A stretch of 64,000 nt of DNA from assembly GCF_035084215.1 (NCBI RefSeq), contig NC_090356.1:15810001-15874000 (forward strand), given 5' to 3'. The notes under the pieces are model-generated. The model was not told where the DNA came from. It ran no database searches and saw nothing but the letters and a program-made list of their open reading frames with translations. Origin of the DNA: Heptranchias perlo. Its lineage: Eukaryota. The translations under genes were made by a program, and so were the position numbers. Of the stretch, positions 6,065 to 62,500 are shown piece after piece; position 1 is the first letter of the stretch, and each line of letters opens with the position of its first letter.

Positions 6065-6888
6065 AGTTTATAACAAGTTAATAAAGCTGCGAACGGTTAC
6101 ATCAAAGCTCATCGCCCCACATGGAGCAGCAACTGATTATTACTTTATGGAATTAATCTAACATAAGAACCCCTACTCTTGCTGAAGAGAAGCTACTTAT
6201 TACCTATTGTTTCAAATGTGCACTGCATGCGAAATTTGTTACAATATGGAGAAAAGTGTACAGGAAAATAAAACATAAAATGCACCATTCATCTGCTGTG
6301 CCATATGTGGTTTAACAGTGTAGAATCATAGAACGATCCAGCACCGAAGAAGGCCATTCGGCCCATCATGCCTGTGCTGGCTCTCTGAAAGATCTATCCA
6401 ATTAGACCCACTCTTTCCACAAATTTTTCCTTTTTAAGTAAGGATCCAATGTAATTAACCATTTTAGGGCTGCTGAAATTCCGCATCAAAAACTCAATTT
6501 TCTTCACAAAACAAAGTACCTAACAGACACTGGTAATAAGTGTATGTACATTTTTAAAACCGTGCTGCATTATATTTATGCTAGAACACTTTTTTAATAT
6601 TCAAATCCCAGATGTTATTTGATGCAAATTTAAATGGGCAGAATGTAGCAGAGCAAATTTAATACAGAAAAGTACAATATTGCATTAAGAGGAAAAAATG
6701 GGCATCATAAGTACTCCACAAATGGCGTTGAAATAGCTACAAATGAAGTTGAAGGAGATCGAAGGATATGGATAGATTTGATGCTTAAAATGTCCAACCA
6801 CTGTGGAGCAGCAATCATCAAAGCAAGTAGAATGTTGAACTATTTGGAGAAACAGCACAGTACGATTGATAACGTTATGCTTAAATTG

Positions 6889-7127
6889 TGCCTCAGTTGC
6901 CTAGGCCCTAAGTTCTGGAATTCCCTCCCACACCTCTCCACCTCTCTCTCCTCCTTGAAGACACTCCTTACAACCTACCTCTTTGACCAAGCTTTTGGTC
7001 ACCTGCCCTAATATCTCCTTATGTGGCTCGGTGTCAAATTTTGTTTGATAATCGCTTCTGTGAAGCACCTTGGGATGTTTTACTACATTAAAGGCGCTAT
7101 ATAAATGCAAGTTGTCGTTGTTGTTGT
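6889..7127 (+). mobile_element. L2 LINE 3' end
   Basis: 'SCLGPKFWNSLP...LKTLLTTYLFDQAF' and tail 'ggcgctatataaatgcaagttgtcgttgttg'. Confidence 0.8.
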
Positions 7128-7232
7128 TTTACAGTGCTCTGGTCTGGTCAGACCACACCAGTTTTTTTTAATTCTTTTATTCGTTCACGGGATGTGGGCG
7201 TCGCTGGCAAGGCCGGCATTTATTGCCCATCC

Positions 7233-10133
7233 CTAATTGCCCTCGAGAAGGTGGTGGTGAGCCGCCTTCTTGAACCGCTGCAGTCCGTGTGGTGACGGTT
7301 CTCCCACAGTGCTGTTAGGAAGGGAGTTCCAGGATTTTGACCCAGCGACAATGAAGGAACGGCGATATATTTCCAAGTCGGGATGGTGTGTGACTTGGAG
7401 GGGAATGTGCAGGTGGTGTTGTTCCCATGCGCCTGCTGCTCTTGTCCTTCTAGGTGGTAGAGGTCGCGGGTTTGGGAGAAGAAGCCTTGGCGAGTTGCTG
7501 CAGTGCATCCTGTGGATGGTGCACACTGCAGCCACAGTGCGCCGGAGGTGAAGGGAGTGAATGTTTAGGGTGGTGGAAGGGGTGCCAATCAAGCGGGCTG
7601 CTTTATCTTGGATGGTGTCAAGCTTCTTGAGTGTTGTTGGAGCTGCACTCATCCAGGCAAGTGGAGAGTATTCCATCACACTCCTGACTTGTGCCTTGTA
7701 GATGGTGGAAAGGCTTTGGGGAGTCAGGAGGTGAGTCACTCGCCGCAGAATACCCAGCCTCTGACCTGCTCTCGTAGCCACAGTATTTATATGGCTGGTC
7801 CAGTTAAGTTTCTGGTCAATGGTGACCCCCAGGATGTTGATGGTGGGGGATTCGGCGATGGTAATGCCGTTGAATGTCAAGGGGAGGTGGTTAGACTCTC
7901 TCTTGTTGGAGATGGTCATTGCCTGGCACTGATCTGGCGCGAATGTTACTTGCCACTTATGAGCCCAAGCCTGGATGTTGTCCAGGTCTTGCTGCATGCA
8001 GGCTCGGACTGCTTCATTATCTGAGGGGTTGCGAATGGAACTGAACACTGTGCAGTCATCAGCGAACATCCCCATTTCTGACCTTATGATGGAGGGAAGG
8101 TCATTGATGAAGCAGCTGAAGATGGTTGGGCCAAGGACACTGCCCTGAGGAACTCCTGCAGCAATGCCCTGGGGCTGAGATGATTGGCCTCCAACAACCA
8201 CTACCATCTTCCTTTGTGCTAGGTATGAGTCCAGCCACTGGAGAGTTTTCCCCCTGATTCCCATTGACTTCAATTTTACTAGGGCTCCTTGGTGCCACAC
8301 TCGGTCAAATGCTACCTTGATGTCAAGGGCAGTCACTCTCACCTCACCTCTGGAATTCAGCTCTTTTGTCCATGTTTGGACCAAGGCTGTAATGAGGCGT
8401 GGAGCCGAGTGGTCCTGGCGGAACCCAAACTGAGCATCGGTGAGCAGGTTATTGGTGAGTAAGTGCCGCTTGATAGCACTGTCGACGACACCTTCCATCA
8501 CTTTGCTGATGATTGAGAGTAGACTGATGGGGCGGTAATTGGCCGGATTGGATTTGTCCTGCTTTTTGTGGACAGGACATACCTGGGCAATTTTCCACAT
8601 TGTCGGGTGGATGCCAGTGTTGTAGCTGTACTGGAACAGCTTGGCTAGAGGCGCAGCTAGTTCTGGAGCACAAGACTTCAGCACTACAGCTGGGATGTTG
8701 TCGGGGCCCATAGCCTTTGCTGTATCCAGTGCACTCAGCCGTTTCTTGATATCACGTGGAGTGAATCGAATTGGCCGAAGACTGGCTTCTGTGATGGTGG
8801 GGATATCGGGAGGAGGCTGAGATGGATCATCCACTCGGCACTTCTGGCTGAAGATGGTTGCAAACGCTTCAGCCTTGTCTTTTGCACTCATGTGCTGGAC
8901 TCCGCCATCATTGAGAATGGGGATGTTTGCAGAGCCTCCTCCTCCCGTTAGTTGTTTAATTGTCCACCACCATTCACGACTGGATGTGGCAGGACTGCAG
9001 AGCTTTGATCTGATCCGTTGGTTGTGGAATCGCTTAGCTCTGTCTATAGCATGTTGCTTCCGCTGTTTAGCATGCATGTAGTCCTGAGTTGTAGCTTCAC
9101 CGGGTTGGCACCTCATTTTTAGGTACGCCTGGTGCTGCTCCTGGCATGCTCTTCTACACTCCTCATTGAACCAGGGTTGATCCCCTGGCTTGTTGGTAAT
9201 GGTAGAGTGAGGAATATGCCGGGCCATGAGGTTACAGATTGTGCTGGAATACAATTCTGCTGCTGCTGGCCCACAGCGCCTCATGGATGCCCAGTTTTGA
9301 GCTGCTAGATCTGTTCTGAATCTATCCCATTTAGCACGGTGGTAGTGCCACACAACACGTTGGATGGTGTCCTCAGTGCGAAGACGGGATTTCATCTCCA
9401 CGAGGACTGTGCGGTGGTCACTCCTACCAATACTGTCATGGACAGATGCAATTGCGACAGGTAGATTGGTGAGGACGAGGTCAAGTAAGTTTTTCCCTCG
9501 TGTTGGTTCGCTCACCACCTGCCGCAGGCCCAGTCTAGCAGCTATGTCCTTCAGGACTCGGCCAGCTCTGGTGCTACCGAGCCACTCTTGGTGATGGACA
9601 TTGAAGTCCCCCACCCAGAGTACATTTTGTGCCCTTGCTACCCTCAGTGCTTCCTCCAAGTGGTGCTCAACATGGAGGAGGACTGATTCATCAGCTGAGG
9701 GAGGACGGTAGGTGGTAATCAGCAGGAGGTTGCCTTGCCCATGTTTGACCTGATGCCATGAGATTTCATGGGGTCCAGAGTCAATGTTGAGGACTCCTAG
9801 GGCCACTCCCTCCTGACTGTATATCACTGTACCGTCACCTCTGGTGGGTCTGTCCTGCCGGTGGGACAGGACATACCCAGGGATGGTGATGGAAGAGTCT
9901 GGGACGTTGGCTGACAGATATGATTCTGTGAGTATGGCTATGTCAGGCTGTTGCTTGACTAGTCTGTGGGACAGCTCTCCCAATTTTGGCACAAGTCCCC
10001 AGATGTTAGTAAGGAGGACCTTGCAGGGTCGACTGGGCTTGGTGTTTTGCCGTTGTCGTGTCCGGTGCCTAGTGGTCCGATGCCGGGTGGTCTGTCCGGT
10101 TTTATTCTTATTATGACTTTTCGTAGCGAGATT
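7233..10133 (-). CDS. APE endonuclease + reverse transcriptase; frame open from the TAA at 10136-10134, no ATG before the APE domain
   Basis: APE motifs VLLTNIWGL, LTESYL, YRPP, GDFNVHH, LDLVLT, SDH; RT motifs NYRPISLL, QFGFR, DIKVAFDRV, GVPQGSVLGP, FADD. The ORF-track start at 9992 is a GTG; 47 further sense codons lie upstream. Confidence 0.92.
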   Translation of the reverse strand, partial: NLATKSHNKNKTGQTTRHRTTRHRTRQRQNTKPSRPCKVLLTNIWGLVPKLGELSHRLVKQQPDIAILTESYLSANVPDSSITIPGYVLSHRQDRPTRGDGTVIYSQEGVALGVLNIDSGPHEISWHQVKHGQGNLLLITTYRPPSADESVLLHVEHHLEEALRVARAQNVLWVGDFNVHHQEWLGSTRAGRVLKDIAARLGLRQVVSEPTRGKNLLDLVLTNLPVAIASVHDSIGRSDHRTVLVEMKSRLRTEDTIQRVVWHYHRAKWDRFRTDLAAQNWASMRRCGPAAAELYSSTICNLMARHIPHSTITNKPGDQPWFNEECRRACQEQHQAYLKMRCQPGEATTQDYMHAKQRKQHAIDRAKRFHNQRIRSKLCSPATSSREWWWTIKQLTGGGGSANIPILNDGGVQHMSAKDKAEAFATIFSQKCRVDDPSQPPPDIPTITEASLRPIRFTPRDIKKRLSALDTAKAMGPDNIPAVVLKSCAPELAAPLAKLFQYSYNTGIHPTMWKIAQVCPVHKKQDKSNPANYRPISLLSIISKVMEGVVDSAIKRHLLTNNLLTDAQFGFRQDHSAPRLITALVQTWTKELNSRGEVRVTALDIKVAFDRVWHQGALVKLKSMGIRGKTLQWLDSYLAQRKMVVVVGGQSSQPQGIAAGVPQGSVLGPTIFSCFINDLPSIIRSEMGMFADDCTVFSSIRNPSDNEAVRACMQQDLDNIQAWAHKWQVTFAPDQCQAMTISNKRESNHLPLTFNGITIAESPTINILGVTIDQKLNWTSHINTVATRAGQRLGILRRVTHLLTPQSLSTIYKAQVRSVMEYSPLAWMSAAPTTLKKLDTIQDKAARLIGTPSTTLNIHSLHLRRTVAAVCTIHRMHCSNSPRLLLPNPRPLPPRRTRAAGAWEQHHLHIPLQVTHHPDLEIYRRSFIVAGSKSWNSLPNSTVGEPSPHGLQRFKKAAHHHLLEGN

Positions 10134-10344
10134 TTACAACTGATTGGCTTGCTCGGCCATTTCAGAGGGCAATTAAGAATCAACCACATTGCTGTGGGTC
10201 TGGAGTCACATATCGGCCAGACCGGGTTTTTACGACAATCCGGTAGTTTCATGGCCATCATTACTGATACTAGTATTTTAATTCCAGATTTTTATTTATT
10301 TAATTAATTGAATTTTTTAATTAATTAATTGAATTTAAATTCGC

Positions 10345-10440
10345 CAGCTGCCGTGGCGGGATTTGAACTCATGACTTTGGATTTTTAGTCCAGGCCTCTG
10401 GATTACTAGCCCAGTAACATAACCTCTATGCTACCGTACC
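10345..10440 (-). promoter_or_regulatory. tRNA-Thr(AGT)-like internal Pol III promoter: A box 10433-10423, B box 10370-10359
   Basis: Sense reads GGTACGG TAGCATAGAGG (A box) ... CTGGG CTAGTAA TCCAG (anticodon arm, AGT) ... GAGTTCAAATCC (B box). Confidence 0.85.
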
Positions 10441-10671
10441 AAGACACAAAGGAGACATTCAAACCCTGATGACAGTGCAGAGAAGAGGCAGGAAAACTGA
10501 TCCCTAGCATCAGAGGGCTGAGACATGAGGAGTGACTGGAAAAAGGCTTTTCAGCCTTTAAAAGAAGTGACTGATATATATCAGAGAGGTGTATAAGATA
10601 GTAAATGGTGTATCCGTACTTATGATCTTGTGAACTAGGTATTTCACTGTTATGGAAGGAAATCCTTAAAA

Positions 10672-11062
10672 TAAAGAAAGATTTGCATTTATATAGCGCC
10701 TTTCACAACCTCAGGACCTCCCAAAGCGCTTTAGGGCCAATGAAGTACCTTTGAAGTGCAGCCACTGTTGTAATGTAGGAAACGCAGTTGTCAATTTGCG
10801 CACAGCAAGGTCCCACAAACAGCAATGTGATAACGACCAGATAATCTGTTTTTAGTGATGTTGGTTGAGGGATAGATATTGACTAGGACACCGGGGAGAA
10901 CTCCCCTGCTCTTCTTGAAATTGTGCCATGGAATCCTTTATGTCCACTTGAGAGGGAAGACGGGGCCTTGGTTTAATGTCTCATCCGAAAGACGACACCT
11001 CCGACAGTGTAGCACTCCCTCAGTACTGCACTGGAGTGTCTGCCTAGATTTTGTGCTCAAGT
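10672..11062 (-). mobile_element. Deu-SINE, head missing
   Basis: Well-preserved body and tail matching the copies at 23690-24144 and 62080-62500. Confidence 0.8.
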
Positions 11063-23689: not shown

Positions 23690-24144
23690 AGAAAGATTTG
23701 CATTTATACAGCACCTTTCACAACCTTAGGATGCCACAAAACGCTTTACAGCCAATTAAGTACTTTTGAAGAGTTGTAATGTTGGAAACGCAGCAGCCAA
23801 TTTGCATACAGCAAGGTCCCACAAACAACAGTGTGTTAATGACCAGATAATCTGTTTCAGTGATGTTGGTTGAGGGATAAATATTGGCCAGGACATTGGG
23901 AAGCACTCCCCTGCCCTTCTTCGAAATAGAGCCTTGGGATTTTTTTACTTCCACCTGGGAGGGTAGACAGGGCCTCGGTTTAATGTCTCATCCAAAGGAC
24001 AGCACCTCCGACAGTGCAGCACTCTCTTAGTACTGCACTGGAGTGTCAAGCTAGATTTTGTGCTCAAGTCTCTGAAATGGGACTTGAACTCACGACCTTC
24101 AGACTCAAAGGTGAGAGTGTGATCAACTGAGCCGTAGCTGACAC
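23690..24144 (-). mobile_element. Full-length Deu-SINE
   Basis: tRNA head 'gtgtcagctacggctcagttg...gagttcaagtcc', Deu body, L2-like tail with (tctt)n. Confidence 0.85.
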
Positions 24145-24190: not shown

Positions 24191-24706
24191 ATGGAATACT
24201 CTCCACTTGCCTGGGTGAGTGCAGCTCCAACAACACTCAAGAAGCTTGACACCATCCAGGACAAAGCAGCCCGCTTGATTGGCACCGCATCCACCACCCT
24301 AAACTTTCACTCCCTTCACCACTGGCGCACAGTGGCTGCAGTGTGTACCATCCACAGGATGCACTGCAGCAACTCGCCAAGGCTTCTTTGACAGCACCTC
24401 CCCAACCCACGACCTCTACCATCTAGAAGGATAAGGGCAGCAGGCACATGGGAACAACACCACCTGCATGTTCCCCTCCAAGTCACACACCATCCCGACT
24501 TGGAAATATATCGCCGTTCCTTCATCGTCGCTGGGTCAAAATCCTGGAACTCCCTTCCTAACAACACTGTGGGAGAACCTTCACCACACGGACTGCAGCG
24601 GTTCAAGAAGGCGGCTCACCACCACCTTCTCATGGGTAATTAGGGATGGGTAATAAATGCTGGCCTCGCCAGCGACACCCACATCCCATGAACAAATAAA
24701 AAAAAA
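24191..24706 (+). mobile_element. 5'-truncated copy of the 7162-10440 LINE family
   Basis: 'MEYSPLAWVSAAPTTLKKLDTIQDKAARLIG...' nearly identical to the long copy; ends in poly(A). Confidence 0.92.
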
Positions 24707-28149: not shown

Positions 28150-28487
28150 TGGTTTCAAGCCCCTCTCCAGGACTTCAGTACATAATCTAGGCTGACACTT
28201 CAATGCAGCACTGAGGGGGTGCTGCATATTGGAGATGTTGTGTCCCTGTTCAGGTAGGCGTAAAAGATCCCTTAGCACTATTTAAAGAAGAACAAGTGTC
28301 CCAGTGTCCTGGCCAACATTTATTTTTCAACCCACACCACCAAAAACAGATTAACTCGTTCCTCTCACTGCTCTTTATAGAATCTTGCTGTGTACAAATT
28401 GATTGCTGTGTTAGTAGCATGACCACACTTCAAAAATACTTAATTGGCTGTAAAGCGCTTTGGAATGTCCTAAGGGTGTGAAAGGTG
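28150..28487 (+). mobile_element. Deu-SINE, degraded
   Basis: B-box remnant, Deu body and tail. Confidence 0.75.
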
Positions 28488-37069: not shown

Positions 37070-37640
37070 ATTCTGATTACCTGCCGAGACAGTTGAGCAC
37101 TACAATTAACCTCAGCACCTCTGGGAGGTAAAAATCAAGCAGGTTTCCTACGCTTGGACACTTCCCAGTGATCCCGGTTTGAAAGAGCACATGTGTAGAT
37201 TTGAGAACAAGATTGGCCTCATCTGCAATGCCTGCTGTGATCAAATAGGCTACCAGCGCACATTATTTAGGCTCACGCATGAAGAAAGAACTTGCACATC
37301 TCTCGCACCTTTCACAACCTCAGGACGTCCCGAAGTGCTTCATAATCAATGAGGCACTTTTGAAGTGTAGTTGCTGTTGTAATGTAGGAAAAGTGGCAGC
37401 CAATTTGTACACAGCAAGGCCCCACAGACAGCAATGTTATAATGACCAGATAATCTGTTTTAGCGACGTTGGTTGAGGGATAAATATTGGCCAGGACTCC
37501 CCTTCTCTTCTTCAGATAGTGCCATGGGATCTTTTAAATCCACCTGAGAGTGATTATTTGGATGTGTACCAGGGGGCAGTCAGTGCCTCTTCAACCATAT
37601 TCCAGAAAAAATCAGCGCCTTTTAATTAAAGAGGGGAAAA
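37070..37640. mobile_element. LF-SINE-like element (+) interrupted by a Deu-SINE fragment (37286-37550, -)
   Basis: Outer element breaks at 'gctcacgcatgaagaa' and resumes after 'cacctgagag'. Confidence 0.6.
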
Positions 37641-41400: not shown

Positions 41401-42044
41401 GACACACAAAACAAAGATCTTATATGAATTCCATAGGCCAGACCTCATCTCTTATGCCTTGAGGAGGAAGAAAAACTCATATTTAGGAAAAATGTTAATT
41501 AAAAATATACTAAGCTAATTAAAGCAGGTGGTTTTTTTTCAGACCATGGGCATAATTTTAAAAGAAATCTGCGTTGGGGGCAGGGGGGCAAAGATAATCT
41601 TTTTTTTGGAACGGGCAGGAATCCTGGCTCCAACTTGCCGAAGAATGCACACGACCCAGAGTCATCTGGGTGCGCACACCGTTCCCGAACCCAGAAGTCC
41701 AGTTGGCAATTAAAGCCAGTGGGACAGTATTTAAAGCACTAAATCACCTAGTTGAAGAATAAATGTAATTTACAATGAAGGCAAGTGATTTCAACGCTGC
41801 CTCAGCGTGTTTCCCGTGTTGTGTGAAACACGCCATGGTGAAGGAGTCGTGTTTCAGCCGGCAGCCATTTGGACATTTAAATGCCTGTTTGACAGATGGG
41901 GATAAAAGGTGAGTTATTGCAGCAAGGCACTCAGTTCTCTCAGACAAACTTTTGGCTGGGAGATCTTTGTGTTTAGACTGAAAATTCTTGGTTTCCACTC
42001 AGAATTGTTCTGTTTACACATATTTACCAACTTTTTGGACCCCT

Positions 42045-42772
42045 TCAAACACTCCATCCAAGGACGAGCAACATCACCAGCCTCGCCAGGCACGGCATGC
42101 ATTTCCGCTACTTGCAGCTCCACAACACAGTGCTGTGCCACAGGCACCTGCACAAGAGCACAGAGGGCAACAACAGAGAGAGCGACATCGCAGGTGGCAC
42201 TACCCTCGCCAGAGGGTCTACAGACCAAGGCTTAGCTTTCTGGAACTCTCTGAGGGGCAGTGCACGGCTGCTCAGAGTGAGTCACCAGGTGGTCACAGAC
42301 ATCTGCAGCCTCCTTCATGCCAGACTGCTCCCGGCTGGGCCTGGTGGCATCTCATTACTCGTTGCAATTAAAGAGACCACTGCCCTAAACTTCTTCGCCT
42401 CCAGATCATTCCAGGGTGCCACCGGGGACATCGCCGGGGTCTCTCAGTCAACTGCACACAAGTGCATAAGGCAGGTCACTGACGGCTTGTTTCACAGGGC
42501 CTCGCAATACGTCAACTTCCCCATGGACAACCTCAGCCAGACGGAGAGGGCAGTGGGATTCCACTCTGTGGCGGCTTCTCACGTGTACAGGGTGCAATTG
42601 ATTGCATGCATGTAGCAATCCGAGCACCTCCACATGACAAGACTGTTCATCAACAGAAAGGGGTATCACTCCATCAACACTCAGCTCGTTTGTGACCACC
42701 ACAAAAGATTTCTTCACGTGTGCGCCAGATTCCCTGGCAGCTGCCACGATTCGTTCATTCTGAGGGAATCCA
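42045..42772 (+). pseudogene. Harbinger (HARBI1-like) DDE transposase, frameshifted and 3'-truncated
   Basis: 'TALNFFASRSFQGATGDIAGVSQSTAHKCIRQVTDGL', 'VQGAIDCMHVAI', 'VCARFPGSCHDSFILRES'. Confidence 0.9.
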
Positions 42773-42931
42773 GGCACTGTGGTCATTGAAGGGCTTGTAA
42801 GAGAACAGAAGGCAATATTAAGCATCATCAAAGGTGTATCATGTTGCGATGAGCATACTGAGGTGTTCAACACGCCAAGCATTGTTACCATCAATTCATG
42901 TTGTGTGTGATGAATGTTAAAGTTGTGTCAC

Positions 42932-43664
42932 CAGACATTTGTGGGGTGCCAGTCTTGGAGTCCCTGACAGACAGGCACTCGAGGGTGCGGCTGATCTCCA
43001 GCGCCTCCTGCTCTCCGTGTGTGAGGACCACTATTTGTTGTGGCCCCACTCCAGTCCTCGCTCTCTTACGCGCATTTTGGGCTCTCTTCTGGAGGGGGAG
43101 AAAGTGCAGATGTGTGAGTGAGTGAAGGTGAAGTGGCCAACCGATGAATGCATTGCTTTGGGTGAGGCTGACCGTGAAAGGGGTGCATCAGAGGGTGAGT
43201 ATGAGACAGAGACATCACATTGGATGAGGATTGGGGTGAGTGGTAGTGGCGGGGTGACTACTGGGGAGGTGAGGAAGTGCTGAGGGTGTGCAGGTAAGTT
43301 GAGGATGAGCCTTAAGTGGGTGTGAGAAGTGATGTGATGGAGTAGTCTTGGCAGTGCAGAATGATATGGGGGGTGGGGGATGATGTGCACCATGGAATGC
43401 AGGAGAATGAGTGAGTGTACTCACTTTTGCTGACCTACTTAGGTCATTGAAATGCTTCCTGCACTGGACCGAGGTGTGGGAGATGTTGGTACTGCTGGTG
43501 ACCTCCTCTGCCATCTCGAGCCAGGCCTTCTTGGTGGCAGAGGCAGGGCGCTTCCTCCTGTTGGCCGCGTAAAATAGTTCCCTCCCCCTCCTCACCCCGG
43601 CCAGTAGCAGCTGAAGTGAGGCATCACTGAATCGTAGAGCTGCCTTGCCCCTGTGCTGCTCCAT
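42932..43664 (-). pseudogene. Harbinger Myb/SANT-like DNA-binding gene; exons 43664-43425 and 43088-42932
   Basis: MEQHRGKAALRFSDASLQLLL...KKAWLEMAEEV...QCRKHFNDL, GT-AG intron, then KRAQNARKRARTGVGP; remainder deleted. Confidence 0.85.
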
Positions 43665-44904
43665 TGAATCTTCTTGCTCTTTGCTCCAGCAAAATCCATT
43701 GGGGCAATGTCCCTTTAAATCCAGGCGCTGCAGCTGACAGCCTGTCATGCAGGTGCACCGTCCACCCACTGCGAGGCTTTCGGGCGGCAAGCCCGGAAAC
43801 AAGATTAATGGCCACCAATTAAGTCGCGATCACGTGGGGAACGGTAAGTTTATATTGGTTGGTTTGCCGCGCGCTCATTGCCCTCCCCCCACTGGCTGCC
43901 ATTCCGCCGTCCTTTTAAAATCGAGCCCCGTGTCATTATCATGTTCTTAAATCTGGATACATTTGTAAATAGAGTAACAGTAAATGTTCACTTTGGAGGT
44001 CATGTTTGAATAGGAATTTTCCTATGATGGAAAGATTTAATTGGCGTACAGTGAACTGTGTTAGTTACTGAAGTGTGCAGAAGGTACATTACACGATTGC
44101 AGTAGAGTGAAGATGCTGGCTCAAGAGTTTTCTGGTGTTAATAGTTGGCAACCAGTCAGAATGACATGAAGATGAATGCTTTGGTGCATTCCTAATTGGA
44201 AGAGAGAGAATCCCTGTTGTAAAAGGGAGTCAAGTGAAGTTTGGCAGTTCAGACGAGTTCTAATGAAGGCGAAGTGGGCTTTGAGGGCAAGCAAGGAGAA
44301 ATGACTGACATTTTGTTACCACCATTAGTGGAATGGGCTGATATTTAAAGGGAAAGTAAACCTTTTATCCTTCTGCCATGTGTATATTTCAAAGCTATCA
44401 CAAGTTAGATCTATATGACACTATTTTCAACATTTCCATTCATCTCAAATACTTCTCCAGGGTTTCTTAAAAATTTCAGCCTTAATGCCACAATAATTCA
44501 CCTCCATATAGAGATGGTGGGGTTTTTACTGTTACTTCCATTCCCTTGAATTAAAAGTCTGCCCATTGGTTTAAGCTCTTATTAGATGCCAAAAAATAGA
44601 AAAATCCTGGAAATGCAAAAACCAATCAATCTATTCTGTGGGGTAATCTTCTAATAACTAGTCTTGCTTGAGGTTATTTAATTTTGTACTGATATTGTGT
44701 AGTTCTGTAAACACAGCCTAAGTTAAATAGTGTGCTTCTATCTACATTACTCTTAATTTCAGCCTTTGTAGGACCTGGTTCATATCCCTTCTCAATCTTC
44801 ACTTGTATCTCTCTTTGTACTTGCAGCAATGGTGATGTTCTCCAGATAACAAGTTCAGATACTGTTCCCCTGAGCATATGCAGAATCGACATAGCAAGTT
44901 TCAT

Positions 44905-50827: not shown

Positions 50828-51237
50828 GGGTCAGGGATGTCTCGGAGCGGCTGCAGGACATTCTGGAGGGGGAGGGTGAACAGCCAGTTGTCGTGGTGCA
50901 TATAGGTACCAACGATATAGGTAAAAAACGGGATGAGGTCCTACAAGCTGAATTTAGGGAGTTAGCAGTTAAACTAAAAAGTAGGACCTCAAAGGTAGTA
51001 ATCTCAGGATTGCTACCAGTGCCACGGGCTAGTCAGAGTAGGAATGACAGGATAGCTAGGATGAATACGTGGCTTGAGAGATGGTGCAAGAGGGAGGGAT
51101 TCAAATTCCTGGGCCATTGGAACTGGTTCTGGGGGAGGTGGGACCAGTACAAATTGGACGGTCTGCATCTGGGCAGGACTGGAACCAATGTCCGAGGGGG
51201 AGTGTTTGCTAGTGCTGTTGGGGAGGGTTTAAACTAA
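50828..51237 (+). pseudogene. CR1 ORF1 C-terminus, SGNH esterase-like domain
   Basis: 'VVVHIGTNDIG' and 'DGLHL' motifs. Confidence 0.85.
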
Positions 51238-51379
51238 TGTGGCAGGGGGATGGGAACCGATGCAGGAAGTCAGTGGGAATTAAAGTGGTGACAGAAACAA
51301 AAGGCAGTAAGGGAGAGTGTACAAAACATGACCGGACAGATGGTCTGAGAAAGCAGGGCAAAGACCAAAGGAAGTCTAG

Positions 51380-54170
51380 ATTAAACTGCATTTATTTCAA
51401 TGCAAGAAGTCTGATGGACAAGGGCACGGATGGGTACATGGGACTGGGATGTTATAGCTATTACTGAAACATGGCTAAGGGAGGGGCAGGACTGGCAGCT
51501 CAATGTTCCAGGGTATGGATGCTATAGGAAAGATAGAGCAGGAGGTAAGAGAGGAGGGGGAGTTGCGTTCTTGATTAGGGAGAACATCACGGCAGTAGTG
51601 AGAGGGGATATATCCGAGGGTTCGCCCACTGAGTCTATATGGGTAGAACTGAAAAATAAGAAGGGAGAGATCACTTTGATAGGATTGTACTACAGACCCC
51701 CAAATAGTCAACGGGAAATTGAGGAGCAAATATGTAAAGAGATTACAGACAGCTGCAAGAAAAATAGGGTGGTAATAGTAGGGGACTTTAACTTTCCCAA
51801 CATTGACTGGGACAGCCATAGCATTAGGGGCTTGGATGGAGAGAAATTTGTTGAGTGTATTCAGGAGGAATTTCTCATTCAGTATGTGGATGGCCCGACT
51901 AGAGAGGGGGCAAAACTTGACCTCCTCTTGGGAAATAAGGAAGGGCAGGTGACAGAAGTGTTAGTGAGGGACCACTTTGGGACCAGTGATCATAATTCCA
52001 TTAGTTTTAAGATAGCTATGGAGAATGATAGGTCTGGCCCAAAAGTTAAAATTCTAAATTGGGGAAAGGCCAATTTTGACGGTATTAGACAGGAACTTTC
52101 AGTAGTTGATTGGGAGAGTCTGTTGGCAGGCAAAGGGACGTCCAGTAAGTGGGAGGCTTTCAAAAGTGTGTTAACCAGGGTTCAGGGTAAGCACATTCCT
52201 TATAAAGTGAAGGGCAAGGCTGGTAGAAGTAGGGAACCTTGGATGACTCGGGAGATTGAGGCCCTAGTCAGAAAGAAGAAGGAGGCATATGACATGCATA
52301 GACAGCTGGGATCAAGTGGATCCCTTGAAGAGTATAGAGATTGCCGGAGTAGAGTTAAGAGAGAAATCAGGAGGGCAAAAAGGGGACATGAGATTGCTTT
52401 TGCAGATAAGGCAAAGGAGAATCCAAAGAGCTTCTACAAATACATAAAGGGCAAAAGAGTAACTAGGGAGAGAGTAGGGCCTCTTAAGGATCAACAAGGT
52501 CATCTATGTGCGGAACCACAAGAGATGGGTGAGATCCTGAATGAATATTTCACATCGGTATTTACGGTTGGGAAAGGCATGGATGTTAGGGAACTTGGGG
52601 AAATAAATAGTGATGTCTTGAGGAGTGTACATATTACAGAGAGGGAGGTGCTGGAAGTCTTAACGCGCATCAAGGTAGATAAATCTCCGGGACCTGATGA
52701 AATGTATCCCAGGACGTTATGGGAGGTTAGGGAGGAAATTGCGGGTCCCCTAGCAGAGATATTTAAATCATCGACAGCTACAGGTGAGGTGCCTGAAGAT
52801 TGGAGGGTAGCAAATGTTGTGCCTTTGTTTAAGAAGGGCGGCAGGGAAAAGCCTGGGAACTACAGACCGGTGAGCCTGACATCTGTAGTGGGTAAGTTGT
52901 TCGAGGGTATTCTGAGAGACAGGATCTACAGGCATTTGGAGAGGCAGGGACTGATTAGCAACAGTCAGCATGGTTTTGTGAGAGGAAAATCATGTCTCAC
53001 GAATTTGATTGAGTTTTTTGAAGGGGTAACCAAGAAGATAGATGAGGGCTGTGCAGTAGACGTGGTCTACATGGACTTTAGCAAAGCCTTTGACAAGGTA
53101 CCGCATGGTAGGTTGTTACATAAGGTTAAATCTCACGGGATCCAAGGTGAGGTAGCCAATTGGATACAAAATTGGATTGACGACAGAAGACAGAGGGTGG
53201 TTGTAGAGGGTTGTTTTTCAAACTGGAGGCCTGTGACCAGCGGTGTGCCTCAGGGATCGGTGCTGGGTCCGCTGTATTTACTATTTATATTAATGATTTG
53301 GATGAGAATTTAGGAGGCATGGTTAGTAAGTTTGCAGATGACACCAAGATTGGTGGCATTGTGGACAGTGAAGAAGGTTATCTAGGATTGCAACGGGATC
53401 TTGATAAATTGGGCCAGTGGGCCGATGAATGGCAGATGGAGTTTAATTTAGATAAATGTGAGGTGATGCATTTTGGTAGATCGAATCGGGCCAGGACCTA
53501 CTCTGTTAATGGTAGGGCGTTGGGGAGAGTTATAGAACAAAGAGATCTGGGAGTACAGGTTCATAGCTCCTTGAAAGTGGAGTCACAGGTGGATAGGATG
53601 GTGAAGAAGGCATTCGGCATGCTTGGTTTCATTGGTCAGAACATTGAATACAGGAGTTGGGATGTCTTGTTGAAGTTGTACAAGACATTAGTTAGGCCAC
53701 ACTTGGAATACTGTGTACAGTTCTGGTCACCCTATTATCGAAAGGATATTATTAAACTAGAAAGAGTGCAGAAAAGATTTACAAGGATGCTACCGGGACT
53801 TGATGGTTTGACTTATAGGGAGAGGTTGGATAGACTAAGACTTTTTTCCCTGGAGAGTAGGAGGTTTAGGGGTGATCTTATAGAAGTCTATAAAATAATG
53901 AGGGGCATAGATAAGGTAGATAGTCAAAATCTTTTCCCAAAGGTAGGGGAGTCTATAACGAGGGGGCATAGATTTAAGGTGAGAGGGGAGAGATACAAAA
54001 GGGTCCAGAGGGGCAATTTTTTCACTCAAAGGGTGGTGAGTGTCTGGAACGAGCTGCCAGAGGCAGTAGTAGAGGCGGGTACAATTTTGTCTTTTAAAAA
54101 GCATTTGGACAGTTACATGGGTAAGATGGGTATAGAGGGATATGGGCCAAGTGCAGGCAATTGGGACTAG
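51380..54170 (+). pseudogene. CR1 ORF2 (APE + RT), frameshifted near 51420 and near 53277
   Basis: YFNARS, ITETWL, YYRPP, GDFN, SDHN, NYRPVSL, DFSKAFDKV, GVPQGSVLGP, KFADDTK; split across track ORFs 51430-53313 and 53211-54170. Confidence 0.93.
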
Positions 54171-54290
54171 CTTAGTGGTATAAACTGGGCGACATGGACA
54201 TGTTGGGCCGAAGGGACTGTTTCCATGTTGTAAACTTCTATGATTCTATGATTCTATTAAGAAGCCCTACCCCCTACCTTGACTATCCTC

Positions 54291-54715
54291 TTTTTTATGT
54301 TCATTCTTGGAAAGGCCAGTATTTATTGCCCATCTCTAGTTGTCCTTGAGAAGGTGATGGTGGGCCGCCTTCTTGAACCACTGCATTGGAGCTTGCTAGC
54401 CCACTTCAGAGGGCAGTTAAGATTCAACCATGTTGGTATGGAACCAGAGTCACATGAAGGCAAGACCGGGTAAGGAGCTTTCCCTCCCTAATAGAAAAAA
54501 CATAGAAAACATAGAAAATGGACATTAGTGAGTCAGTTGGGTTTTTACGACAACCCGACAGCTTCATGGTCACTTTTACTGGTACCAGCTTTATGTTTCC
54601 AAATTTTTCTATAAATTGAACAGAAATTCTCAAACTCCCATGGTGGGATTTGAACTCATTCTCTGGATTATTAGTCCAGGCCTCTGGATTACAAATCCAT
54701 TAATATAACTACTTA
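54291..54715 (-). mobile_element. tRNA-Thr-like SINE made of the 5' leader and 3' tail of the 7162-10440 LINE family
   Basis: 54715-54391 aligns to about 10435-10149; 54385-54291 aligns to about 7282-7175; no ORF between. Confidence 0.88.
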
Positions 54716-55672: not shown

Positions 55673-56685
55673 GGGGGGGGGGGGAGTTTTAACCCCCAAG
55701 AACAGGTGGGTTGGGGCGGGTAGGCAGTTAAAATAATCGATTTTTGGAACACGACCATACCTCAGCTCCAATACGCCCACTTCTGGGTTTAACGGAGGAG
55801 CGTTTGGATGCGTCCCAATAACCTACTGACCATAATTATTTCAGGCGGGCGGGTAGTTAACGGAGCAATTAACGTGATTATGAGGCATTAAGCAGGTGTT
55901 TTTAAATGAATTTAAGACACCTTCGGATTTAACACCTCCAGCATGGGGTTTCTGGGTCGCCGGAATCACGGCAGGTAAAAGGAGGCGAGTAGGGTTGGAT
56001 CCTTGAGGTAAGTACCTTTATTGCACTGCTTGAGGGCCAGGAGGAACAGGGGTGCTCCCCAGTGGCTCACCAAACTTACCTGCTGTGATCGGACCCCCGC
56101 GATCGGCCAATCCCCACACCAGCGTTCAGCCGATTTCCCCCCCTCCCCCACTACCAATATACGACCCCCTCCCTACCTCCAATGTCCAACTCTTCTCCCA
56201 ATCTGCGATGTCCAACTCCCCCCCCCACCCCCCAAGTTTTTTATCATTCGTTCATGGGATGTGGGCATCGCTGGCAAGGCCAGCATTTATTGCCCGTCCC
56301 TAATTGCCCTTGAGAAGGTGGTGATGAGCCACCTTCTTGAACCGCTGCAGTCGGTTCTCCTGGCATCAGACCCCCCCCCCCTCCCCATCTCCACCTACCA
56401 GCCCGCGATCTTCTCCCCGGCTCCCCCCCCAACTCCCGATATCCTCCACGCCCCCCCCCCCCCACCGCCCCCAACCCCATGTCCTCCACAGCCCACGATC
56501 TCTCCCTCCTTCCCTCACTCCCTTCCACCTTTCCACTTTCTGGCTGCGGGAAACCGATTTGAAAAATTTAAAACAGGTCCTACCATTAAATTCGGTAGGA
56601 TCTGCAAGAAACCCGGACTTCCGGGTTTCCTGTCCGCAAACCCTCCCCCTGCTCGCTTCCCAGCTCCAAGTTAAAACCCAGGCCC
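55673..56685 (+). mobile_element. Non-autonomous Harbinger element with 3-bp TSD (ATG)
   Basis: Left ~130 bp homologous to the end of the 59590-61420 element; ATG at 55670-55672 and 56686-56688; removal restores CR1 'gagacatggttg' (ETWL) on minus. Confidence 0.8.
56237..56352 (-). mobile_element. Short 3' copy of the tRNA-headed LINE family nested in the Harbinger element
   Basis: Near-identical to 7176-7286. Confidence 0.88.
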
Positions 56686-59589: not shown

Positions 59590-61420
59590 AAAACTCATCA
59601 TGAGATGGCTGCCGGGAGCCATGGCCCACCTCTCTTTTTCCACTGATACTAAGAGAGCCTGTGAGGGATGAGGGCATCCCTGGCATCCAGGGCAGCAATG
59701 TGCTCGGCTGGTTTGGCAATGGGTGCACCATCATCATATTCCTCCTCCTCATCCTCCTCCTCATCCTCTTCCTCTTGTTCAATGTTATCACCAACAGAGG
59801 ATGATTAACGAGCGCCTTCGTCCTCCTCTATCTGTAAACCTCACTGCTGCGCTATGTTGTGCAGAACGCAGCGCACCCCGATTATTCTGGAGATCCTCGC
59901 TGGTGAGTACTGAAGGGCACCTTCAGGCCTATCCAGGCACCTGAAGCGTATCTTCAACATGCCTGTGGCTTGTTCAGTGACACACCTGGTGATCATGTGG
60001 CTCTGGTTGTATCGCTCTCATGCCTCGTTGGTGGGGTTCCTCATAGGTGTCATGAGCCAAGTTTGCAGCGGATATCCCTTGTCTCCAACAAACCAGCCCT
60101 TAAGTCTGTCTCTTGTTTGGAGGAGGTCTGGAATGTTGGACTGGTGCAGAATGAACGCATCGTGCCAGCTGCCAGGAAATCTGGCGCACACCTGCATAAA
60201 TCGCTTCTTGTGGTTGCACACCAACTGTGCCTTGGCGGAGTGATAGCCCTTTTGGTTTTTGAAGATTCCTGGCCCATGTGTTGGTCCTCGTATTGCCACA
60301 TGTGTGCAGTCGATTGCATCCTGCACCCGTGGGAAGCCAGGCAGAGAAGCAAAACCCACTGCCCACTCATCATGGCTGTTGTCGTTGTGGGGAAAGTTCA
60401 TGTAATGGGACGCTCCGGCAAACAACCCATCCGTCACCTGCCTTATACCCTTATGATTGACTTCCCCTTGGAAATCTCACCAGTGACACCCTGGAAGGAT
60501 CCGGAGGCAAAGAAATCGAGGGCAGTGATTACTTTTACTGCGACGGGCAATGCGTGGCCACCAGGTCAAGTCGGGAGCAGCTCTTCCTCAAGGAGGCTGT
60601 AGATATCTGCGACCACCTGCCGACTCAATCTGAGCCGGCGTAGACACTGCTCCTCAGAGAGGTCCAGGAAGCTCAGCCTCTGCCTGTCTACCCTCTCATG
60701 TGGGTAGTGCCTCCTGTGACTTTAGCCCCTCTGTTGCTCCTCTCTCTGCTGTTCTCCAGGTTCTTGTTGTGCACCTCTCTTTCTTGTGCACGGCAGATCC
60801 CAATACAGCACGGCATGGCTGCTGCAGATGGTCATTTTCCTCCTCCTCCTCAGATGTCCTCTGGAATACATCCATTGCGTTCCCCATCCTGACCATGTCA
60901 GTTTGAGAGGCTCCAAAGTTTTGCTAAAGATGTCTCAACACAAGAACTGTCAGTCTCAGCAAAGAACACACAGTCTCAATGCAAGAACGCTCAGCCAAAC
61001 ATTTGCCTGAGAGAACTGAGAGACCAGCTGCAAAACCTCACCTTTAATTGAGATGGGTCAATCACAGGTTCAAAGGCCCAAATCTGGCTGAATTGGCTGA
61101 ATCTCACCTCTGTTTCACTGGCGAGATTCAGAAGCCCCAGAAAACCCATGCAGGAGACGTTAAATTTGTTTCTGTTTAAGAATCAATTAAAAAATACCTG
61201 CCTCAACTACCTCAGCGATCTTAATTGACGCACTAAGTACCTGCCCGCTGGCAATAATTGGGGACGCGACTTCCGGGTTTCGGCTGCACGCACGCATTCA
61301 AATCTGCCCACGTTAAACCCGGAAGTGGGCACGTCGGTGCCGGGTTACGGTCTCGCTACAAAATCAAGGATTTTCACTACCCACCTGCCCCCAAACTGTT
61401 TTGGAGGGTTAAAATTCCCC
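59590..61420 (-). mobile_element. Harbinger transposon, one-ended (TIR at 61420)
   Basis: End 'ggggaattttaaccc', subterminal 'cttccgggttt' motifs, whole transposase region; Myb half absent. Confidence 0.85.
59649..60887 (-). pseudogene. HARBI1-like transposase, full span but disrupted
   Basis: MGNAMDVF...; 'GFPRVQDAIDCTHVAI', 'VCARFPGSWHDAFIL', 'GWFVGDKGYPLQTWLMTP'; acidic tail ending ARDALIPHRLS*. Confidence 0.9.
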
Positions 61421-62079: not shown

Positions 62080-62500
62080 GTGTCAGCTGTGGTTCAGTGG
62101 CAGTGCTCTTGTCTCTGAGTCAGAAGGTTGTAGGTTTAAGACCCACTCCAGAGACCTGAGCACATAATGCTGGGCTGACACTCCAGCGCAGTACTGAGGG
62201 AGCACTGCACTGTCAGAGGTGCCATCTTTTGATTGAGATGTTAAACTGAGGCCCCATCTGCCCTCTCAGTTGGACGAAAAAGTTCCCACGACATTATTTC
62301 AAAGATGAGCAGGGGAGTTCTCCCCAGTGTTCTGGCCAATATTTATCCCTCAACCAACATTGCTAAAACAGATTACCTGGTCATTTATTTCATTGTTGTT
62401 TGTGGAACCTTGCTGTGTGCAAATTGGCCGCCATGTTTCCAACAACAGTGACAACACTTCAGAAAGTACTTAATTAGTTGTAAAGCGCTTTGGAACATCA
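62080..62500 (+). mobile_element. Near full-length Deu-SINE
   Basis: tRNA head 'gtgtcagctgtggttcagtgg...ggtttaagacc', Deu body, truncated tail. Confidence 0.85.

Follow-up and report, generated by a model that had tools for sequence, protein, structure and literature searches.

A protein-coding LINE with a tRNA-like head and few sense-strand T-runs in the shark Heptranchias perlo: a candidate for transcription by RNA polymerase III

Why should 3.3 kb of a retroelement, most of it coding, contain no run of four T on its sense strand? The question is raised by a full-length long interspersed element (LINE) on the minus strand of a 64,000-nucleotide stretch of Heptranchias perlo DNA (contig NC_090356.1, positions 15,810,001 to 15,874,000; hereafter the window, in whose coordinates all positions are given). 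The family to which this copy belongs is young and abundant and carries a tRNA-like head, and the original prediction, made from the letters alone, held that the coding sequence had been selected for read-through by RNA polymerase III (Pol III). We find that the T-run deficit is real and gives this idea support that is partly independent of the promoter-like boxes in the head, but that it is neither proof nor decisive. The reading that we regard as probable is that of an autonomous LINE, transcribed by Pol III and translated without an AUG, which yields elements resembling short interspersed elements (SINEs) by internal deletion. The parts of the window copy are as follows, T3 and T4 denoting runs of three and four T.

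7162-10440, minus strand: full-length member of the 3.3-kb family of LINEs that begin with a tRNA-like head; sense strand with five T3 and no run of four or more T
10341-10440, minus strand: tRNA-like head, with the exact 5' end common to most full-length copies
10423-10433, minus strand: putative A box (tRNA positions 8-18), TAGCATAGTGG in the family and TAGCATAGAGG in the window copy, read from the sequence
10359-10369, minus strand: putative B box, AGTTCAAATCC, read from the sequence
10134-10340, minus strand: 5' untranslated region (UTR) or SINE-like body, with about 50 nt deleted in the window copy; not a Deu domain
7233-10133, minus strand: single stop-to-stop open reading frame (ORF), 966 aa in the window copy and 972 in the family
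9405-10007, minus strand: apurinic-type endonuclease domain (aa 43-243; Pfam PF03372 and PF14529)
7818-8564, minus strand: reverse transcriptase (RT) domain (aa 524-772; Pfam PF00078, E 9e-36)
7162-7232, minus strand: 3' tail, AATAAA (7176-7181) leading into a short A tract, with no T-run inside
6787-6790, minus strand: first sense T4 in the DNA flanking the tail, where Pol III is predicted to stop on the window copy

Judged by its domain content and the structure of its copies the element is a LINE, with a 5' end like that of a SINE. The head gives an Rfam tRNA match at 10386-10440, at the exact 5' end, which falls under the gathering score (16 bits against 29, E 1.7), and ARAGORN calls no tRNA in it. 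The A box was named from the standard consensus. The family majority sequence, from which the window copy differs by 0.95%, matches the A..B pattern, and the box pair is found on the plus strand in none of 160 foreign LINE loci. A hairpin in the head (10396-10412, minus strand) presents a 7-nt loop, CTAGTAA, at the anticodon position (AGT, presumably Thr-like), and a second, similar hairpin after it stretches the spacing between the boxes. Beyond the head the 5' UTR of the family extends for about 250 nt; a duplicated, AT-rich patch within it (10275-10340) is variable in length and carries 7 of the 14 runs of at least four T found among 89 copy alignments. No stable fold is seen at the UTR/ORF junction (z=0.26). 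The catalytic motifs of endonuclease and RT are intact, and the best PDB matches of the RT region are structures of LINE-1 ORF2p. Named protein matches of the ORF are only short pieces within shark gene models, and the viral contigs hold no relative of the element. At the end of the frame (7233-7260, minus strand) a TAG stands where relatives have Trp and a few more residues (NWxWATD); most intact copies carry that single TAG within the protein match.

The head travels with the coding frame. Among the 30 best genomic copies 26 begin within 6 nt of the first base of the head, and 61 of the 89 copy alignments begin no further than that from its 5' end. When loci were retrieved with the head alone, 29 of 30 continued into the ORF and one was head plus tail (one of the 30 is the window itself, and one repeats an earlier locus). 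Judging from these shared 5' ends and from the continuity of head and ORF, the two are one unit. Copies lie 0.7-4% from the majority sequence, and older ones, at about 83-86%, also bridge head and ORF. Dispersed copies share a constant 3' A tail and are truncated to varying extents at the 5' end; of 33 full-length copies, 4 have target-site duplications of at least 7 bp, including one A-rich chance match. The family, counted with its derivatives, makes up 24,337 of 400,000 bases (about 6%) sampled as 40 evenly spaced 10-kb stretches. Contigs of three other organisms span the full element, and two of these organisms, B and C, have variants of their own at the head/ORF junction. Contigs from four presumed-RNA runs cover all 30 element bins; these were used solely for presence and joints and cannot reveal start, strand or polymerase. 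Two old fragments used as queries retrieved decayed or ordinary family members only, with no head-less sister family among them, and among young copies there are too few changes to judge conservation of the boxes. At five near-identical loci (L016-L020, G000:C1381) a full-length copy sits within an older, oppositely oriented copy of the family; the loci were apparently multiplied by segmental duplication.

Short elements in the window and elsewhere join the two ends of the LINE. The window holds two such pieces.

54291-54713, minus strand: old SINE-like element, the family's head and body joined to its tail
56246-56355, minus strand: tail fragment of the family, 93% identical

In another SINE-like element, L045, the head is 97% identical to that of the LINE and the tail is attached via a short microhomology. 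The contigs contain several different joints between the body's end and the tail, which enter the tail at differing points; some retain bases similar to the beginning of the ORF. By the evidence of these joints, the SINE-like elements are internal-deletion products of the headed LINE.

The frame is under purifying selection. Shared alleles comprise 78 nonsynonymous and 73 synonymous changes, against 6,070 and 1,975 possible (dN/dS about 0.35), singletons give a dN/dS of 0.76, and the 45 codons ahead of the endonuclease follow the same trend, with small numbers. Its first in-frame Met is codon 250 and no in-frame ATG lies ahead of the endonuclease; translation would therefore have to begin without AUG. 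Read-through from an in-frame upstream ATG was considered and is weakened by stop variants among the copies, and also by the loss of 1 nt immediately after the stop in organisms B and C (among the 40 of 343 differences listed).

The tally of runs agrees with what had been claimed for this copy. The plus strand is free of AAAA not only across 7176-10440 but over the wider interval 6791 to 10492, its nearest A4 runs being those at 6787 and 10493. No other A4-free gap in the window comes close to these 3,706 bases: the second longest has 1,087, a factor of 3.4 less. The five AAA stand exactly where they were placed (7709, 8307, 8427, 8862 and 10337), and plus-strand TTTT, put at more than fifteen, amounts to 21 runs of four or more T within 7176-10440. 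Two further stretches had been offered for comparison.

24191-24704, plus strand: 5'-truncated copy of the same family, its last 505 nt, 92% identical
50828-54256, plus strand: conventional CR1-type LINE serving as control, with 12 sense runs of four or more T, and 48 T3 against 36.5 expected

The truncated copy (24191-24706 in the original prediction) does lack a sense T4 but adds nothing, because only 0.5 would be expected in it and it belongs to the same family. The CR1 control does have several sense T4 runs, including those given at 53014, 53214, 53842 and 54017; the one placed at 52064 is really at 52074.

How large the deficit is depends on the null. Against base composition, 7176-10440 has no A4 (sense T4) where 4.3 are expected (P=0.013), and five A3 against 21, with none of 1,000 shuffles as low. 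When the protein and the codon usage of the window ORF are kept, T4 stands at 0 against 2.1 (P=0.078) and T3 at 4 against 12.4, a value reached in none of 5,000 shuffles; for the majority ORF the same synonymous shuffle gives 5 T3 against 12.5 (ratio 0.40, P=0.0007). The depletion survives both the base-matched and the codon-matched shuffle; an explanation by base or codon composition alone, one of the outcomes named as refuting the original prediction, is not borne out by them. The majority sequence of 3,328 nt contains no T4, seven T3 and 21 A4. A3, C3 and G3 are not depleted under the synonymous shuffle and A4 is if anything high; the deficit is specific to T and to the sense strand. Not one of the 29 codons that precede a TTN codon ends in T, and Phe is written TTT three times and TTC sixteen times, a tabulation that the original prediction had called for. 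Pyrimidine tracts are not depleted, and avoidance of splice acceptors was rejected as the cause on this ground. The excerpt of PMC3141230 that we used reports that human Pol III stops at T4 or longer, and partly at a T3 with another T one base away, an isolated T3 being almost inactive. Motifs active in this sense occur once in the majority sequence against 4.65 expected (P=0.015): six of its seven remaining T3 are of the isolated, inactive kind and one is flanked.

Other LINEs do not share this pattern. The 160 foreign loci yielded 132 with a stop-free frame of at least 400 codons, and across these the T3 ratio under the synonymous shuffle is 0.75-1.23, against 0.40 for the element; under a first-order Markov null the element stands at 0.48 and 71 of the 80 metagenome loci, 9 having been set aside as short matches, at 0.75-1.49. 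The longest T4-free stretch in the 72 foreign frames of at least 2,400 nt measures 1,226 nt. From the same genome, 75 fragments of other LINEs taken from the 40 evenly spaced stretches have 668 T3 against 526 expected and 167 T4 against 132, and hence no deficit. The closest relative with DNA, L091 (46% RT identity), has no A..B pair, a ratio of 1.03 and 20 T4. Relatives without a detectable tRNA head are accordingly not T3-depleted in either the 132 foreign frames or the 75 same-genome fragments, so that a second of the three refuting outcomes is likewise not seen. In a tree of 48 unnamed RTs the element lies apart from the CR1 of the window, and its nearest sisters are P0054, P0086, P0073, P0061, P0055, P0067 and P0057.

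Variation among copies bears on whether mutation or selection removed the runs. Singleton mutations make T3 as often as neutrality predicts (30 of 255 sites against 273 of 2,259), and alleles shared by three or more copies never do so (0 against 22, with about 2.5 expected, which is suggestive only). New mutations thus create T3 freely while shared alleles contain none, which points, on small numbers, to selection on source elements rather than to mutational bias.

In the scheme that we favour, TFIIIC would bind the A and B boxes of a tRNA-derived, type-2 Pol III promoter, and Pol III would start at the head and read through 3.3 kb since terminators have been purged; source copies that gained a T4 or a flanked T3 would make truncated RNA and leave no offspring. 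Transcription would pass the A tract into flanking DNA and end at the first T-run there. A downstream T4 is present past the tail in 57 of 60 copies, at a median distance of 104 nt; transcription of Alu likewise ends at the first flanking T-run. Translation of the uncapped RNA would begin at a non-AUG codon early in the frame, and the encoded protein would bind the tail, reverse transcription being primed on the internal A tract. Anatomy, selection on the frame and the scarcity of T-runs are observed, whereas we infer the polymerase, the RNA ends and the start site: Pol III may make the RNA of the element, which sequence alone cannot prove.

An alternative would have RNA polymerase II (Pol II) transcribe a LINE that has captured a SINE as its 5' UTR, starting in the region of the head or reading through out of host genes, into a capped RNA ending at AATAAA; T-runs would then be avoided for some other reason peculiar to the element, for example U-tract termination, decay or immune sensing, or their scarcity would be the relic of an earlier Pol III phase. 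We think this unlikely, though it accounts for several features that weigh against Pol III. AATAAA stands directly ahead of the A tract, and 43 of 50 full-length copies have a G as the base before the head; both features also fit a capped, polyadenylated RNA, as a cap can template a G. The same G, however, precedes the SINE-like derivatives L045 and L203, and could therefore be no more than base 1. Translation ordinarily proceeds from capped RNA, but a capped RNA that was scanned would meet many upstream AUGs, none of them in frame without an intervening stop. The head lacks a cloverleaf fold, and a Deu-type SINE of the same genome, presumably Pol III-made, keeps its T3 (6 against 5.3 expected; T4 0 against 1.4), showing that a Pol III head by itself needs no T3 loss. 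An RNA nine times as long would pay more for leaky stops than this SINE, which is an argument and not a test. Weighing for Pol III and against Pol II are the two boxes, intact at the exact 5' end, and the other LINEs of the same cells, whose lack of T-run loss makes a host-wide pressure unlikely.

The remaining points against selection for Pol III read-through would be accommodated if the deficit were a by-product of composition, that is, of a T-poor strand, C-ending codons, low Phe shared with sister proteins, TpA hypermutability and chance in one lineage. The absence of T4 alone is modest (P=0.013 to 0.09). A dinucleotide-preserving shuffle, which absorbs part of the signal by design, leaves 5 T3 against 6.5 (P=0.12), and the deficit can be described at the dinucleotide level; T3 followed by C or G alone number 5 against 9.35 (P=0.056). 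Part of the stronger signal consists of isolated T3, the kind almost inactive as a human terminator, and all copies represent one lineage and one evolutionary event rather than many tests. By z-score 3 of the 132 foreign frames are as extreme (L109, L168, L286), and only 7 of the 132 are nearly as T-poor (fT ≤0.235). T4-poor foreign frames exist in L292 (1 against 8.7) and L276 (0 against 4.7), where no head was detected and 5' ends are not identifiable, and the nearest sisters in the RT tree are proteins without DNA, which makes the comparison with head-less relatives only approximate. Some of the missing T3 are those preceding A, and TpA is a mutation hotspot: singletons there are about twice background in both the headed family (L001-L090) and CR1 (L172-L182), and recurrent alleles at the T of this dinucleotide reach 33.6 per 100 sites in the headed family, near the level of CpG, T>G changes being almost as frequent there as T>C. 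Phe content is 1.95% against a median of 4.05% across 161 proteins, but six of seven sister proteins are likewise Phe-poor (1.5-3.2%) and Phe columns are kept as often as those of other residues; Phe loss as a signature of Pol III was rejected on these grounds. Against an origin in composition, the T3 ratio lies outside all 132 controls under the synonymous shuffle and all 71 under the Markov null, the CR1 family has an equal TpA excess yet a normal T3 count, new mutations do not avoid creating T3, and runs of A, C and G are normal. We consider this explanation improbable. Selection for Pol III read-through, as first proposed, is thus supported in part. The idea that multi-allelic sites mark RNA modification was set aside in favour of a DNA hotspot, because most lie in TpA, at either base, and CR1 also has excess TpA singletons.

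Textbooks divide LINEs, which are coding and transcribed by Pol II, from SINEs, which are non-coding and transcribed by Pol III. R2 is a protein-coding non-LTR element translated from non-Pol II RNA, often without AUG; it is a Pol I co-transcript of rDNA, is cut out by a ribozyme and has a restriction-like endonuclease. Unlike R2, the present element has its own putative internal promoter boxes and inserts widely. With single-ORF LINEs of the CR1/L2 group it shares domain order, catalytic motifs, 5'-truncated copies and apparently few target-site duplications; it differs in its Pol III-type 5' end, the lack of an AUG before the endonuclease and the T-run-poor sense strand. Its tRNA-like head, A and B boxes, anonymous body, LINE-type tail and lack of an internal T4 are shared with tRNA-derived SINEs (SINE2) such as SacSINE1 and the CmiSINEs, partnered by L2-2_CM, as far as these are described in the excerpt of PMC5499810. 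SINE2 elements are short and non-coding, whereas this one measures 3.3 kb and has a 972-codon endonuclease-RT frame under purifying selection; only its deletion derivatives, not the LINE, are short and non-coding in that sense. Identity with Deu-type SINEs or SacSINE1 was rejected, the body not being a Deu domain: the Deu motif (from PMC7245038 Fig. S4) is absent from the element, and its matches in the window, at 84, 10977 and 23984, belong to another SINE. That second family has window copies at 1-379, 10693-11060, 23714-24086, 28156-28485, 37282-37550 and 62138-62499, three of them with the Deu motif. SINEs cannot encode a protein, according to the part of PMC5786205 available to us. Bipartite, non-autonomous LINE derivatives and the SINEs that arise from them (RTE, Ingi, Vingi, R2; Bov-A/Bov-tA), as presented in excerpts of PMC5786205 and PMC7245038, share the internal deletion that joins a 5' part to a 3' part; there the tRNA head is gained after deletion and the LINE is taken as Pol II-transcribed, whereas here the head is on the autonomous element, and deletion alone therefore gives a SINE (L045).

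No such element was found described in a literature search, which did not extend to Repbase and Dfam, where the family may already be catalogued. Nor is it described in the excerpts of PMC5499810, PMC7245038, PMC3747384, PMC4824008, PMC10468316 and PMC5804259, the first of which treats the other shark SINEs. We put at about an even chance the full proposal of an autonomous, protein-coding 'SINE' with its own tRNA-derived Pol III promoter, codons shaped by terminator avoidance and cap-independent, AUG-less translation, which makes up several percent of a vertebrate genome and has repeatedly given birth to SINEs by internal deletion without head capture. If true, the division between LINEs and SINEs would be broken by a natural Pol III message of 3.3 kb that encodes an enzyme of 970 residues, a vertebrate cell would be translating Pol III RNA that has neither cap nor AUG, efficiently enough for the element to occupy about 6% of the sampled DNA, and a SINE family would have a direct origin. 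Small constructs could then address how processive Pol III is across kilobases, how its RNA is translated and what the body of a SINE does.

Some minor observations concern other loci. Few sense T4 are found in L292:4001-6034 and L276:568-1854, the two frames noted above, and likewise in L108:44-1844 (0 against 1.7 expected) and L268:3905-5986 (4 against 11.3); these four are possibly further Pol III-headed LINEs or counterexamples. Animal-type LINE frames occur in many bacterial and archaeal genome bins (L223-L302) and are probably host DNA. In the window itself, 41977-43829 and 59907-60602 contain related, decayed frames with 74% DNA identity between the sites, which resemble a Harbinger-type transposase and its partner protein.

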